Below are positions 32,194-42,977 of a stretch of DNA of 64,000 nt, piece by piece (position 1 is the stretch's first letter; the number at the start of each line of letters is the position of its first letter). The translations under genes were made by a program, and so were the position numbers. This DNA is from Acidimicrobiia bacterium. Its GTDB lineage: Bacteria > Actinomycetota > Acidimicrobiia > Spongiisociales > ZC4RG35. Location: assembly GCA_965220995.1 (NCBI GenBank), contig OZ244856.1, forward strand, positions 97,407-161,406. The letters run 5' to 3'. The notes below the pieces were generated by a model. It saw nothing but the letters and a program-made list of their open reading frames with translations. It did no database searches and was not told where the DNA came from.

Positions 32194-32226
32194 TCAGGAA
32201 GGCTCCGAAAACCCTTGAGCAGCCGT

Positions 32227-32258
32227 GTAGTTATTGAGTAAAACTACTCAATAACTAC
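32227..32258. terminator. AT-rich perfect inverted repeat GTAGTTATTGAGTA-aaac-TACTCAATAACTAC (hairpin or operator)
   Basis: 14-bp arms with a 4-nt loop, placed between the amidohydrolase operon and the lower-GC island. It is not followed by a T-tract, so terminator versus protein-binding site is undecided. Confidence 0.4.
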
Positions 32259-32277
32259 ATCGGAGGTTTGTATCCTG

Positions 32278-33540
32278 GTGGAAATGAGTGGTTTCCGCCG
32301 ATCTCAGGTAGAGACTCTGATCGAGAGGCTGGCCGAACCGCCCGACCGGCTGTTGGCGATCTTCGGCCCGCGCCAGACCGGCAAAACTGTGGCGGCTCGC
32401 CAGGCTCTGTCCTCTGTTAAGCAGCGGAGTCTTTACGTGGCGGTTGATGAGCCCGACACGGAGGGGACCAGACCACGGCTGCCCACGGGCAGTGACTCCG
32501 TTGCTTCGTCACCGGTGGTGAAAGACGGGTCCTGGCTTGTGAGTGTGTGGCAGGACTCTCGTCGCCGGGCATGGGATTCGGGGGAAGGTTTGGTGTTGGT
32601 CTTGGACGAGATACAGAAGATCGACGGGTGGTCTGACATCGTGAAAGGACTGTGGGACGCCGACCGGGCGAACAATTGTCCACTCCATGTAGTTGTCCTG
32701 GGCTCCGCTCCACTGTTGATGCAAGCAGGCTTGAATGAGAGTCTGGCGGGGCGCTTCGAGCCGATCCGGTTCACACACTGGTCGTATCCGGAGATGGCCG
32801 AGGCGTTCGGGTTTGATTTACATCGGTACATCTATTTTGGTGGCTACCCGGGCGCCGCTTCGCGTGTCCACGACCAGCAGAGGTGGATGGCCTATGTGCT
32901 GGGAGCTCTGGTGGAGCCCATCATCGAGCGTGATGTGCTGGCGATGACGAGAGTGCACAAGCCGTCGCTCCTGAAACGCCTGTTCGACATGGGGTGTCTG
33001 TACTCGGGACGAGTGCTGTCGTACAACAAAATGCTGGGTCAGCTTCAGGAAGCCGGCAATACCACGACCCTTACCCGCTATCTGAAGCTGCTCTCGGATG
33101 CGGGTCTGTTGGCGGGTCTCCCCAAGCACACAACTCGTCGGGTTTCCGCCAAGGCCTCCACGCCGAAGCTGAACGTGCTCAACACGGCTCTGATGACTGC
33201 TGCATGGGGGTACAGCTTCGAAGAGGCCCGTGCGGACCGGGGGTATTGGGGTCGTCTGGTCGAGAGCGCCGTCGGGGCTCACTTGCTCAATACGGGGGGA
33301 CCCTCCACCTCGGTCAAATACTGGAGGTCCGGGGATCACGAAGTTGATTTCGTCCTGCAAAGAGGACCCCGCGTGGTTGGGATTGAGGTGAAGACGGGGA
33401 AAGGGCCATTGGCTCTCTCGGGGATGGCTGAATTCGAGAGGCGTTTCCGGCCGGTAAGAACCCTGGTGGTCGGATCGGGTGGCCGGCCTCTGCACGAATT
33501 CTTGTCAGTACCCGCTGACTACTGGTTGGAACCGGCGTGA
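32278..33540 (+). CDS. AAA_14-family ATPase with C-terminal DUF4143 (predicted PD-(D/E)xK nuclease fold)
   Basis: Walker A 'GPRQTGKT' and Walker B 'LVLDEIQ'. The C-terminal 'DHEVDFVLQRGPRVVGIEVKTGK' has a D...ExK pattern. Its stop overlaps the next gene's start (GTGA). Confidence 0.8.
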   Translation: MEMSGFRRSQVETLIERLAEPPDRLLAIFGPRQTGKTVAARQALSSVKQRSLYVAVDEPDTEGTRPRLPTGSDSVASSPVVKDGSWLVSVWQDSRRRAWDSGEGLVLVLDEIQKIDGWSDIVKGLWDADRANNCPLHVVVLGSAPLLMQAGLNESLAGRFEPIRFTHWSYPEMAEAFGFDLHRYIYFGGYPGAASRVHDQQRWMAYVLGALVEPIIERDVLAMTRVHKPSLLKRLFDMGCLYSGRVLSYNKMLGQLQEAGNTTTLTRYLKLLSDAGLLAGLPKHTTRRVSAKASTPKLNVLNTALMTAAWGYSFEEARADRGYWGRLVESAVGAHLLNTGGPSTSVKYWRSGDHEVDFVLQRGPRVVGIEVKTGKGPLALSGMAEFERRFRPVRTLVVGSGGRPLHEFLSVPADYWLEPA

Positions 33541-40534: not shown

Positions 40535-40560
40535 TGGAGGCTCCCCAACCGGGGAGCCTC
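40535..40560. terminator. Perfect hairpin GGAGGCTCCCC-aacc-GGGGAGCCTCC between the two convergent SLH genes (bidirectional terminator candidate)
   Basis: 11-bp stem and 4-nt loop in the 77-bp gap between the convergent genes. Confidence 0.5.
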
Positions 40561-40585
40561 CATCAGATAGTCAAGTGTTTTCTGT

Positions 40586-42859
40586 TTATGAACCGACCGC
40601 GGTGACTCGGAAAATGCTGACACCGTCATCGTCGTAGAACACGACCTCGACAGAACCCGCAGTTCCGCCAGTACCTGCCTTGATCAGTCCTTCGAATTTC
40701 TCGAGGGTGATACGCCTGTCTTCGCCGGCGGCGGGGGCGTCGTCGCCGCTAGTGAGGCCGTTGATGAAGGTATCGCCGTCATCATAGCTGTACAGCGCAC
40801 CCGTGATGCGGAACCGGTCCTCCTTGTCGTAGACCGCAGTAATGGGAGTAGAGGCACCCGTACTGTCGTCATCGGCATGTCTCACTGGGACCACCGAACC
40901 GTCAGCAACCTCTGGAGTAGTGACATCATTTTCGTCGGCCGCGTCCCGGAGTGTATAGGTCACTTCTAAGACTGTGCCCAGAACCCCATCAAGGGTGCGG
41001 GTCCATCTGGCCATGCCTCTGCTACTCACGGTCCTTGTGTCGGAATTATCAGCCCCGGTACCGATGGCGATCGCCACATTTTCGCCCTTGCCGGCGGGGT
41101 TGCCGTACTGGTCGTAGAACGACACCGAGGCTCGGACGGTCACCTTGTTCTGGCCGCTCAAGAAAGCGTAAGGATCAGTGCTTCCCTTACCGGAACCCAC
41201 AGCTGCCCGAGAGATAGCGGTGCCACTCCCGTCTCCGACGGTGTCAGTGGCACCGGCCGGAAGCAGGGTCGGATTGGAGTCTGTCCAGACGATCCTGGTT
41301 ACCACGGTCTCATCATTACCGCCTGTTGCTGTGTACTCATCCGTCGGATCAGCCACATCATTCTGAGTGGTGCCGTTGTCGTTCACATCGGCTTCGAAGG
41401 TAATCATGTCGACCCTGTCAACATCAACGGCGCCCTTGGTGGACTTCGGACCGGAGGCGGTGTAAGTCACCATACCGTCATCATCGGTCTTCATCGGAGC
41501 AGGCCCCGGATGCAGGCGACTTGTGCCCTGGTTCACAGTAATGCTGACTTCAACACCGGACTTGGCCACCGGTTCACCAGTACCGTCGACCAACTGCGCG
41601 GTGACAGTGACACTGCTTGTAGCGTCTATATCCACCGTGTTCTCATTGGTGGAGTTCTCGTTGATGTCAGTAGTGACCTTCAGGTGCACAGCATCAGTGG
41701 TGGAAGACAGAGTTACTGTCGCATGGGGGGACGTGTCGACGTCGAAGTCGTTCTCGTCAGCGTCGGCATCACCCATCCACGCGTAGTAGGTGTTCATCTT
41801 CCCGTTTTCAGCGATGCCGTCCTGGAAGATGTTGCCCGAAACGTCAGTCAGCGACTCGTCATCGGTCCACGCGCAGTCAGAAGCCTCTCCACAGCCACCG
41901 TCCTCGTTGAACGAACCAACCGTGTCGCTGTCGAAGACCTTGACGGACACATCGACCATCGGCATGAACATGTCATCCCGATAGGACACAGCAATGGTGG
42001 TAGAGATGTCGCCGAAGTCCGAGGTGCTTGCAGCCTGGATGGTCACACCGGCCGGTCGGGCGTTGGAGTGATCCAACACTCCAGCCATGAAACCGGCCAT
42101 CGACGCACGGGTGATAGAAGCCGCCGGACCATACGAAGTGTCAGAAAGACCAGAAGCAACACCCAACTCCCACAACGCCGTTATCGCGTCATAGGTCGAC
42201 TTCGTCACCGAACCCAAATCAGTAAACGGCGACTCCGCCTTCTTGGTCTCATCCGCGTCAGTATCATCGTCGTCTTCGACATCAACCACATCTTCGGGGG
42301 TAAACCCAAACGGGGTGTCACCATCGGCCATCGGATCCATCTGATCCATCAACCGGCTGATGAACAAAGCCATGTGACCACGCTGCACCGGATCAGAAGG
42401 TGAATAGGTGGTGTCAGACGTGCCCTGGGTGATCCCAAGATCGGCCAACTGGTTGATCGCGGTCTGTGACTCGTCCGACAGGTCACCGATATCGGTGAAA
42501 CCCGCATCGTCAGGATCGGAAGCAACCTCGATTCCCACCAACCCGGCCAGGCGAGTCAAAAACAGGGCCATATGCTCACGCGTCACCGACATCAACGGCG
42601 AATACGTGGTAGCCGACGTTCCCAGAGTGATCCCGTAATAGGCAATACAGTCGATGTCACCCGCGTTTTCATGATTCGCCGGTACGTCGGTGAAGTCCGA
42701 GGTACCCGCACCAACACACGCTGAGAACGTCGCCGTGTAATCCGCTTTCGGATCGTCGTCAGCAGCCGACACTGGTACGGCGACCAGCACACTGGCCACC
42801 AGTGCCAGGGCTGTCAGGACTGCTGTCTGACGCCGGAACCGGCTCAGAAAAGTAAACAT
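40586..42859 (-). CDS. SLH-domain surface protein, a convergent paralog of the 38316-40508 gene
   Basis: The first 35 or so residues are identical (MFTFLSRFRRQTAVLTALALVASVLV.VPVSAADDDP), and paralogy extends through three SLH domains and about 350 aa before the C-terminal halves diverge. Confidence 0.8.
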   Translation of the reverse strand: MFTFLSRFRRQTAVLTALALVASVLVAVPVSAADDDPKADYTATFSACVGAGTSDFTDVPANHENAGDIDCIAYYGITLGTSATTYSPLMSVTREHMALFLTRLAGLVGIEVASDPDDAGFTDIGDLSDESQTAINQLADLGITQGTSDTTYSPSDPVQRGHMALFISRLMDQMDPMADGDTPFGFTPEDVVDVEDDDDTDADETKKAESPFTDLGSVTKSTYDAITALWELGVASGLSDTSYGPAASITRASMAGFMAGVLDHSNARPAGVTIQAASTSDFGDISTTIAVSYRDDMFMPMVDVSVKVFDSDTVGSFNEDGGCGEASDCAWTDDESLTDVSGNIFQDGIAENGKMNTYYAWMGDADADENDFDVDTSPHATVTLSSTTDAVHLKVTTDINENSTNENTVDIDATSSVTVTAQLVDGTGEPVAKSGVEVSITVNQGTSRLHPGPAPMKTDDDGMVTYTASGPKSTKGAVDVDRVDMITFEADVNDNGTTQNDVADPTDEYTATGGNDETVVTRIVWTDSNPTLLPAGATDTVGDGSGTAISRAAVGSGKGSTDPYAFLSGQNKVTVRASVSFYDQYGNPAGKGENVAIAIGTGADNSDTRTVSSRGMARWTRTLDGVLGTVLEVTYTLRDAADENDVTTPEVADGSVVPVRHADDDSTGASTPITAVYDKEDRFRITGALYSYDDGDTFINGLTSGDDAPAAGEDRRITLEKFEGLIKAGTGGTAGSVEVVFYDDDGVSIFRVTAVGS

Positions 42860-42977
42860 AAGTTCACTTATGCATGCATGAGTTACAACTCGTCAAAGGC
42901 GCCAAGACATGATCGTAAGGCTGACGGGGAAGGGTCGGTTCGGCGATTCTGGTTTTCCGGCGCTATCTGATGGCAGA

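Follow-up and report, generated by a model that had tools for sequence, protein, structure and literature searches.

Erebus (EruA), Hypnos (HyoA) and bNACHT64 are reportedly antiviral STAND NTPases (van den Berg 2024; Kibby 2023). They correspond to Avs10, for which the major capsid protein of the phage is the reported trigger (Lee et al. 2026, PMC13581612). Proteins of the candidate family PDC-S01 (COG1373) combine an AAA ATPase and a PD-(D/E)xK domain (AAA_14 plus DUF4143); among "defence" calls in prokaryotes the family is reported to rank fourth in frequency, and its function is undemonstrated (PMC12988326). The one PDC-S01 gene that had been assayed failed to protect E. coli (bioRxiv 10.1101/2024.09.26.614923).

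We found relatives of both families side by side in a window of 64,000 nucleotides (the whole stretch of DNA that was analysed) from a Candidatus Spongiisociaceae-like sponge symbiont. They lie within a low-GC segment at 32200-42900, which we consider to be probably composite flexible genome: a mobile two-gene anti-phage cassette and a variable SLH module at a synteny and rearrangement breakpoint, immediately past a conserved amidohydrolase operon. The first module, at 32225-37709, would be the horizontally transferred part and has the following features.

32225..37709, plus strand: putative mobile defence cassette, composed of a palindrome, an ATPase gene and a NACHT-nuclease gene, delimited by DNA homology to locus L002
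32226..32259, no strand: perfect palindrome TGTAGTTATTGAGTA-AAAC-TACTCAATAACTACA, with 15-nt arms (32226-32240 and 32245-32259) and a 4-nt loop
32284..33540, plus strand: AAA_14 ATPase with C-terminal DUF4143 (PD-(D/E)xK-type), 418 aa, PADLOC candidate family PDC-S01 (Pfam, PADLOC)
33537..37688, plus strand: NACHT NTPase, 1383 aa, with a helical middle and a C-terminal PD-(D/E)xK nuclease domain (Pfam DUF8371), homologue of EruA

The NACHT protein has an N-terminal NACHT fold (NBD, helical and winged-helix domains), and its Walker A (GDPGAGKT, residues 41-48) and Walker B (LFIDGLDE, residues 86-93) motifs are invariant or nearly so in 36-86 homologues. Its C terminus carries the PD-(D/E)xK catalytic motif and adopts a restriction-endonuclease fold. 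Residues 27-1376 match positions 17-1318 of the 1318-position NCBIfam model for EruA (NF058535; E = 3.7e-246), with a score of 820.5 bits that lies under the NCBI equivalog cut-off of 1000 bits; we therefore treat the protein as a relative of EruA, not as its equivalog. The ATPase, whose start codon was set after the 418-aa gene call in the strain-level relative L001, matches AAA_14 (7.6e-19) and DUF4143 (4e-25) in Pfam and the PADLOC model PDLC04791 (PDC-S01) over its full length (E = 2e-152); residues 316-374 give a weak YraN-like match. By homology with Erebus/Avs10, where the trigger is the major capsid protein, the NACHT protein would sense a phage protein, then oligomerise through its NTPase domain and so activate the C-terminal nuclease, aborting infection. 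The linked upstream ATPase could be its obligate partner, acting as regulator, co-sensor or second nuclease. That the pair is instead a selfish addiction module, or a MalT-like signal-transducing STAND regulator outside immunity, seems to us very unlikely.

The two genes form a tight unit: the NACHT gene start and the ATPase stop share 4 bp, and of 80 metagenome loci at 30-49% NACHT identity, 75 have the ATPase gene immediately before the NACHT gene in the same orientation, as part of one operon and not as a stand-alone single gene. ATPase and NACHT divergences are correlated (Spearman 0.69, n = 71). Five NACHT homologues on proteobacterial plasmids have no ATPase beside them, and neither do those of at least three metagenome loci; the NACHT protein may therefore be able to work alone. 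As a two-gene unit the ATPase/NACHT cassette may be new.

The cassette also has discrete ends. Positions 32225-37709 of the window correspond to 8613-14098 of L002, with exactly the same ends and 83.5% DNA identity in an unrelated context; in L002 the cassette has 61.3% GC against 64.4% in the flanks, and here it has 59.9%. The left-flank operon (epimerase, aminotransferase, hypothetical protein, amidohydrolase A, amidohydrolase B) is conserved in order, up to the amidohydrolase, in 31 related Acidimicrobiia species, and the cassette follows it in none of them. In these relatives metabolic genes come next or, as in L030 (the nearest species), a Fic gene and an SLH gene; the cassette occupies the same site only in L001. 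Comparison with related genomes, which the first-pass annotation had proposed as a check, thus bore out the absence of the ATPase/NACHT pair, and it yielded no clean empty site joining both flanks in any of those genomes. In the nearest species the two flanks are ~140 kb apart, which places the segment at a rearrangement junction. The same annotation had inferred horizontal acquisition of an accessory segment between catabolic operons. The genes on either side are indeed metabolic enzymes, and the sequence comparisons support acquisition for the cassette, which is absent from the 31 relatives and recurs as a 5.5-kb unit with identical ends in L002; for the SLH genes, whose family is low in GC throughout the clade, import from outside the clade does not follow from the composition.

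The cassette begins with its palindrome. An AT-rich palindrome had been reported at 32227-32258; it is real, with perfect 15-nt arms spanning 32226-32259, and it is retained before the cassette in the different genomic context of L002. Its core, TGAGTA-N4-TACTCA, lies upstream of the ATPase gene in 64 of 73 loci, and across homologous loci the symmetry reaches ±18 nt. Where positions vary, 58-78% of sequences keep them complementary, although only 30-42% would be expected to (a level reached by 0 of 5000 shuffles), and arms of up to 29 nt stay perfectly complementary while their sequence varies among loci. Such covariation would suit a nucleic-acid hairpin or cruciform (a 5'-UTR stem, an RNase III site or an insulator) in place of a protein-bound operator, and an RNA hairpin of -28.6 kcal/mol is predicted. 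We nevertheless regard the hairpin as somewhat unlikely: each half-site has two conserved blocks (TGAGTAA; ATTAC at -18 to -14) whose spacing of ~11 bp fits a DNA-binding dimer in successive major grooves; many loci have the palindrome right against the start codon or extending over it; no U-tract follows it; and an Rfam search of the palindrome matched no family. The 34-bp palindrome is probably an operator that overlaps the promoter and would serve to keep the cassette repressed. Its candidacy as an island boundary or attachment site was rejected, since this conserved element is of a regulatory type and moves along with the cassette.

We then placed the cassette in the composition of the whole segment. 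A sliding scan of the window put the start of the lowest-GC 10.7-kb stretch at 32201, so the dip reported at 32200-42900 was well located. Its depth had been overstated (55 versus 68%): the segment has 58.2% GC against 63.3% across the remaining window (left flank 63.5%, right flank 63.1%), a difference of about 5 points and not 13. Within the segment 1-kb bins dip to 0.556-0.62 GC; outside they typically lie at 0.62-0.67. The suggested codon-usage check showed a deviation as well. GC3 of the five segment genes is 0.62-0.75 (z from -0.6 to -3.1) against 0.773 ± 0.049 in the 38 others, their synonymous-codon log-likelihoods have z from -0.75 to -2.6, and segment and other genes differ in both measures (Mann-Whitney, p = 0.0015 for GC3 and 0.0003 for codon likelihood); by these statistics the deviation is significant yet moderate. 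A second stretch of low GC3 (0.669) lies within the window at 52020-53195.

The segment had been described as one 10.7-kb island, and this description did not survive. GC falls in two steps, to 59.9% in the ATPase/NACHT pair and to 56.7% over 37689-42900, and the two parts also differ in their similarity to L001. Identity to that strain is at least 99.5% over 24750-37500, except in a few 250-nt bins at 97.6-99.2%, and collapses from ~38300; the cassette and flanks are ~99.7% identical and the SLH proteins ~51%. We conclude that the segment holds two modules with different histories. A single classical integrative island, acquired in one site-specific recombination event with the palindrome as attachment site, would account for the sharp change of composition at the palindrome and for cargo that is entirely non-metabolic. 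We find it extremely improbable given these differences between the halves, and the expected hallmarks were missing when sought: there is no tRNA gene within the 64-kb window, none of the five segment genes matches an integrase or transposase family, flanking direct repeats are unconvincing (the best 23-nt pair is 83% identical, which is chance-like), and the palindrome, which recurs ahead of the ATPase gene at 64 of 73 unrelated loci, is not matched by a similar element on the right-hand side of the segment. Over this scope the recommended search for a tRNA, an integrase or direct repeats came back negative, and none of these features accounts for movement of the cassette.

The second module, at 37710-42900, encodes two SLH surface proteins, in convergent orientation, and a small coiled-coil protein that is probably membrane-anchored. 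With these, the gene content given in the first-pass annotation (ATPase/NACHT pair, repeat-containing membrane coiled-coil protein and two SLH paralogs) was confirmed. The features of this module and of its right edge are as follows.

37775..38098, minus strand: coiled-coil protein, 107 aa, with a hydrophobic C-terminal tail as putative membrane anchor (translation)
37893..37996, coding on the minus strand: three tandem 33-nt repeats (family D1) encoding the 11-aa unit MDxLEGSLNGR (direct-repeat scan)
38316..40508, plus strand: SLH paralog 1, 730 aa, with predicted signal peptide, SLH domain(s) and a variable Ig-like C-terminal part (Pfam SLH, 8e-18)
40586..42859, minus strand: SLH paralog 2, 757 aa (Pfam SLH, 4.8e-21; weak Invasin_D3)
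40533..40564, no strand: GC-rich perfect 14-bp palindrome (I22) between the convergent SLH genes, a terminator-like match of 14 pairs
38303..38916 and 42259..42872, no strand: arms of a 614-nt inverted repeat (I1), 76% complementary, covering the 5' ends of both SLH genes
42860..42977, no strand: AT-rich intergenic region (51.7% GC) upstream of SLH paralog 2, right edge of the low-GC segment
Start at 42978: opine-dehydrogenase gene, just past the low-GC segment

The two SLH paralogs share 47% identity, and the N-terminal third is the conserved part. The N terminus MFTFLSRFRRQTAVLTALALVASVLV..PVSA was read straight from the translation; the signal peptide is our own reading of it and not a tool prediction. 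The small gene varies between strains as well: a 66-nt indel relative to L001 amounts to two extra 33-nt units, and the L001 protein has 129 aa against 107 aa here. L001 carries additional cargo (AbiEii, DUF4276/AAA_21 and a third SLH gene). Homologues of the small gene lie between convergent SLH pairs in two further loci, L121 and L122, where low-GC patches combine SLH pairs and the small gene with defence or toxin-antitoxin genes and have GC3 of 0.60-0.77 against 0.80-0.89 in neighbouring genes. Lower GC is a general signature of this clade's exchangeable gene pool. Recombination in the conserved 5' thirds of the SLH genes could exchange their alleles and would so alter the surface that the cell presents to phages or to the host. 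Dispersed SLH 5' repeats may drive both allele swapping and chromosome rearrangement in sponge-symbiont Acidimicrobiia.

An alternative is that no horizontal transfer took place and the segment was inherited vertically, its low GC being intrinsic and due to amino-acid composition, to weak selection on the codons of rarely expressed genes or to AT-biased drift in fast-evolving genes. The SLH family is greatly expanded, with many paralogs per genome, and is low in GC at every location throughout the host clade, so that low GC in these genes is no proof of import from outside the clade. Their GC1 is low (0.58) because the proteins are rich in Thr, Asp and Ser, and in L030, too, an SLH gene sits downstream of the same amidohydrolase. 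Vertical inheritance of the segment is still unlikely in our view. GC3 and synonymous codons deviate along with amino-acid composition; the cassette is missing at this site from the 31 relatives and reappears with identical ends in the unrelated context of L002; same-locus SLH alleles differ by ~50% between strains with ~99.7% identical flanks; and SLH paralog 2 has its closest relatives outside its own cluster (72-77%) not in its neighbour but in other genomes, those of other sponge-associated MAGs. The SLH part of the segment is better described as clade-native flexible genome.

The island itself is routine, consisting of lower-GC accessory genes at a variable chromosomal site, and the cassette is what adds value. 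We tentatively propose, with rather less than even confidence, that a large clade of Erebus/Avs10-like NACHT-nucleases constitutes an undescribed two-component system, with a PDC-S01-type ATPase-nuclease as obligate partner and a ~36-bp palindrome as control element, and, separately, that sponge-symbiont Acidimicrobiia organise phage defence and surface variation together in recurring low-GC patches. If this is true, part of the catalogued single-gene PDC-S01 would be half of a NACHT system. The linkage gives a testable hypothesis for the function of an abundant ATPase, and it implies that present annotation tools probably mis-score the boundaries of such systems. The coupling of hypervariable SLH genes and defence genes in the same low-GC patches points to a joint exchange of surface variation and intracellular immunity in uncultured sponge symbionts.

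Compared with Erebus/Avs10, the NACHT protein shares full-length collinearity with EruA, the NACHT fold, the long helical middle, the C-terminal nuclease domain and defence-type neighbourhoods. It differs in that an ATPase gene and a palindrome almost always precede the NACHT gene in the host clade, whereas the five proteobacterial plasmid homologues examined have neither. The ATPase shares with PADLOC PDC-S01 the two-domain AAA_14 plus DUF4143 architecture and the full-length PDLC04791 match, but that family is catalogued as an unvalidated single-gene candidate and here the gene stands in a conserved operon with a NACHT-nuclease.

The operators of restriction-modification C proteins and the autoregulation sites of toxin-antitoxin systems are palindromic. 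By analogy, the cassette resembles them in placing a symmetric site directly before, and conserved alongside, a potentially toxic nuclease operon; unlike them, its palindrome is much longer (~36 bp, arms up to 29 nt) and the cassette has no small HTH regulator gene. The second module resembles variable SLH-anchored (S-layer-type) surface proteins in its predicted signal peptide, SLH domain(s) and Ig-like repeats, and in having a conserved 5' part, a variable remainder and many paralogs per genome. It departs from those families in that convergent SLH genes are paired, joined by a small gene for a coiled-coil membrane protein and placed beside defence genes. Finally, the segment shares with defence islands and variable hot spots its defence genes, a GC content below that of the core, strain differences and a slot whose cargo changes among relatives (Fic in L030; AbiEii and DUF4276/AAA_21 in L001). 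In contrast to defence islands, no integrase or mobile-element backbone was detected here, surface-protein paralogs are interspersed among the defence genes, and the site is also a rearrangement junction.

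The segment at 32200-42900 has a real dip in base composition, with a GC content of 58.2% against 63.5% in the left flank and 63.1% in the right flank (mean of the whole window, 62.5%). The first-pass annotation, which had read this segment as a single low-GC island suggestive of horizontal acquisition, set its boundaries well, since the lowest-GC 10.7-kb window in a sliding scan (step 100 nt) starts at 32201, but overstated the drop as 55% versus 68%; the true gap is about 5 points. The drop comes in two steps, to 59.9% for the first two island genes and 56.7% for the remainder, and the 1-kb profile reads ∼0.65 at 31 kb, 0.60 at 32-35 kb, 0.556-0.58 at 37-43 kb, and again 0.65 at 43-44 kb. 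GC3 of the five island genes is, in order, 0.71, 0.68, 0.75, 0.62, and 0.66, compared with 0.773 ± 0.049 for the 38 other window genes, and their synonymous-codon log-likelihoods (leave-one-out) have z values of −0.75 to −2.6. Outside the island, the gene at 52020-53195 is comparably low (GC 59.2%; GC3 0.669, z −2.1). Island genes and other genes differ in both GC3 (Mann-Whitney p = 0.0015) and codon use (p = 0.0003). The compositional deviation of the island is significant, moderate, and not unique.

The segment consists of a cassette (32225-37709) followed by a surface (SLH) module (37710-42900), with these features:

32226-32259, perfect palindrome, 15-nt arms around a 4-nt loop
32284-33540, ATPase with Pfam domains AAA_14 and DUF4143
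33537-37688, 1383-aa NACHT protein, overlapping the ATPase stop by 4 bp
37775-38098, minus strand, 107-aa coiled-coil protein whose C-terminal tail is hydrophobic, with three 33-nt repeats in the gene
38316-40508, plus strand, SLH protein 1
40533-40564, GC-rich perfect 14-bp palindrome (loop of 4 nt) separating the two convergent SLH genes, probably a bidirectional terminator
40586-42859, minus strand, SLH protein 2

The left flank encodes an epimerase, an aminotransferase, and two amidohydrolases, and the right flank encodes an opine dehydrogenase, an MR/MLE enolase-superfamily enzyme, and an isochorismatase-glyoxalase. A search for a tRNA or flanking direct repeats, as the first-pass annotation had suggested, found no tRNA in the 64-kb window and only short, chance-like repeat pairs at the island ends.

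The ATPase matches the PADLOC candidate PDC-S01 (model PDLC04791) over its full length (E = 2e-152). The 1383-aa protein had no match in the Pfam release used, because DUF8371, the label that its homologues carry in the protein database (PF28130), is newer than that release. The NACHT label given on first reading is correct: NCBIfam NF058535 ("NACHT domain-containing antiphage protein EruA") matches the whole protein (E = 3.7e-246; residues 27-1376 against model positions 17-1318), and the HyoA model also matches, more weakly. Across an alignment of 36 NACHT homologues, the Walker A motif (G41-D-P-G-x-G-K47-T), the NACHT-type Walker B motif (LFIDGLDE at 86-93), and a C-terminal D1281...E1294-x-K1296 are invariant or near-invariant. 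The EruA match scores 820 bits, under the equivalog cut-off of 1000 bits, which makes the protein a relative of a known antiphage sensor-nuclease but no certified equivalog. A PDB sequence search with the NACHT profile and the ATPase returned nothing usable.

Horizontal acquisition of the cassette is well supported. On contig L002, which carries the same cassette among unrelated neighbors (ABC transporter, sigma factors, alcohol dehydrogenase), the NACHT homologue is 78% identical and has the ATPase upstream. DNA similarity between the two (83.5% identity) is bounded exactly at 32225 and 37709; it starts with the palindrome, kept in L002 with one base changed, and stops 21 nt past the NACHT stop codon. 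GC of the L002 cassette is 61.3% vs. 64.4% for its flanks. The pairing itself extends much further: among 80 metagenome loci whose NACHT homologues are 30-49% identical, 75 have an ATPase homologue (41-74% identity) directly upstream on the same strand, two have upstream sequence too short to judge, and three have no ATPase within the 375-851 nt of upstream sequence present. Divergences of the ATPase and NACHT genes are correlated (Spearman 0.69, 71 loci), and none of the 80 loci has an SLH gene beside it. Five NACHT homologues on proteobacterial plasmids (28-32% identity) have no ATPase of this type within 3.5-4 kb and sit solo among TIR, DUF4238, toxin-antitoxin, or RES genes. A phage-borne origin of the cassette is unsupported, with homologues on just 2 of 2.9 million viral contigs. 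On a conjugative plasmid of Pantoea ananatis (L116:885-3593), a distant NACHT homologue is preceded by a tyrosine recombinase and a "TrlF family AAA-like ATPase," a partner unlike the ATPase of the window.

We compared the same site in related species by searching with the left-flank amidohydrolase, which gave 31 close loci (68-91% identity) and one distant match at 43%. The close loci are nearly all from sponge-associated Acidimicrobiia, some labeled Candidatus Spongiisociaceae or Spongiisocius, and most retain the epimerase-aminotransferase-hypothetical-amidohydrolase A-amidohydrolase B block. None of the 31 has the ATPase/NACHT pair after this block, nor does the window's right flank occur within 10 kb of it in any of them; their downstream content is lineage-specific and mostly metabolic (5′-nucleotidase, GFO/IDH/MocA oxidoreductase, adenosine deaminase, amidohydrolase). 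The comparison proposed in the first-pass annotation thus found the cassette missing at this site in 31 relatives but did not recover an empty site joining both flanks among the relatives compared. At L030, the left-flank locus of the nearest species, the left flank is ∼86% identical to the window at the nucleotide level, and homology ends at 32201. Next come 1.85 kb containing a Fic/DOC-family gene (L030:12037-12942), then an SLH gene that starts at the equivalent of window 38305; the Fic/DOC gene fills the amidohydrolase-to-SLH slot that the cassette holds in the window. Amidohydrolase B of that locus (L030:10001-11356) matches in three pieces with coordinates overlapping at residues 317-319, suggesting that the gene is frameshifted or a pseudogene in this assembly. 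The right-flank block (oxidoreductase, tautomerase, isochorismatase-glyoxalase, MR/MLE, opine dehydrogenase) is kept in the nearest species (L125), where it adjoins purL ∼140 kb from the left flank on the same contig, placing the island at a rearrangement junction. NACHT homologues at 51-55% identity are present in related species, and we infer that they sit elsewhere in those genomes.

Contig L001, from a near-identical strain that carries the cassette, gave a mosaic of identities: 93.6-97% over window 23537-24750, at least 99.5% over 24750-37500 (except a few 250-nt bins at 97.6-99.2%) with the whole cassette inside, and 63-76% from ∼38300 on. This pattern looks like a recent recombination tract taking in the cassette. 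The small coiled-coil gene differs by a 66-nt indel, with five repeat units in L001 and three in the window. Exact-sequence look-ups of five window flank proteins and P0121 gave no match, which GTG starts may partly explain, and they did not locate the island's right boundary in L001; a homologue search with the right-flank opine dehydrogenase gave no close copy that could be assigned to that contig.

The SLH proteins of L001 are only ∼51% identical to those of the window, and after them L001 has a further stretch absent from the window (L001:19078-24152), with AbiEii, a DUF4276 and AAA_21 ATPase pair, and, besides an SLH fragment, a third SLH gene. Within the window, SLH proteins 1 and 2 are 47% identical with a near-identical N-terminal third, of which a 614-nt inverted repeat is the DNA-level trace. 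At least 961 homologues make up the family, single contigs carry six or more paralogs, and the nearest relatives of SLH protein 2 beyond its own cluster (72-77%) belong to other genomes. Two related sponge-symbiont contigs (L121:10001-22259 and L122:1-15244) carry convergent SLH pairs that enclose a homologue of the small coiled-coil membrane gene; HEPN/nucleotidyltransferase, YopA, AAA_15, and transposase genes are interspersed. GC is 55-61% and GC3 0.60-0.77 in these patches, compared with 64-72% and 0.80-0.89 in their neighbors, and low GC is thus a property of the clade's exchangeable gene pool overall. The proposal of horizontal acquisition stands for the cassette, a discrete unit found in unrelated context and missing at this site in 31 relatives; the SLH module fits better as a surface-protein locus that is native to the clade, recombining, and hypervariable. 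The SLH 5′ repeats could mediate rearrangements at this site. At L122:5080-7398, a called 772-aa product has both SLH and DDE transposase domain matches and may represent an SLH gene with an insertion, or else an artefact of assembly or gene calling.

The palindrome upstream of the ATPase is conserved with the cassette. In 64 of 73 loci its core, TGAGTA-N4-TACTCA (at most one mismatch allowed per half), sits shortly before the ATPase start; the perfect arms are 8-29 nt long, and in many loci an ATG immediately follows the right arm. When 45 distinct sequences were aligned on the dyad, complementarity was 0.58-1.0 from position 2 to ±18 and reached chance level by ∼±20. Each half-site has two conserved blocks, TGAGTAA (−8 to −2) and ATTAC (−18 to −14), about one helical turn apart. 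The variable positions between them are complementary in 58-78% of sequences, where column composition alone would give 30-42% (0 of 5000 shuffles); the sequences are related, which inflates this figure. No Rfam family matched in 31-44 kb, the palindrome included. A promoter scan found no sigma-70-type consensus ahead of the ATPase gene, where a promoter presumably lies. A predicted RNA stem of −28.6 kcal/mol would suit a hairpin or cruciform, a conceivable mode of action; the pattern of the half-sites favors reading the palindrome as an operator, which would overlap the promoter of a potentially toxic operon. We rejected an att site, as the palindrome moves with the cassette and no palindrome-like element lies at the right end of the island, and a terminator of the upstream gene, as it has no U-tract and moves with the cassette.

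By homology, the NACHT protein would sense a phage protein, and NTPase-driven assembly would then lead to nuclease activation; what the ATPase and the palindrome do is likewise inferred. PDC-S01 is reported to be very abundant and is unvalidated (PMC12988326), and a single member tested alone gave no protection in Escherichia coli (bioRxiv 10.1101/2024.09.26.614923), a result that is compatible with a partner requirement and does not show one. According to Lee et al. (Nature 2026, PMC13581612), the phage major capsid protein activates Avs10, a family that unites Erebus, Hypnos, and bNACHT64; operons and neighboring genes receive no mention in the Avs paper. We found no paper mentioning DUF8371 and no prior description of the linked ATPase and palindrome in a search whose scope lay outside the original Erebus/bNACHT papers. 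The island itself is ordinary. What the cassette shares with Erebus/Avs10 is a NACHT nuclease of that kind, whereas the strictly linked PDC-S01-type ATPase and the conserved long palindrome are added here.
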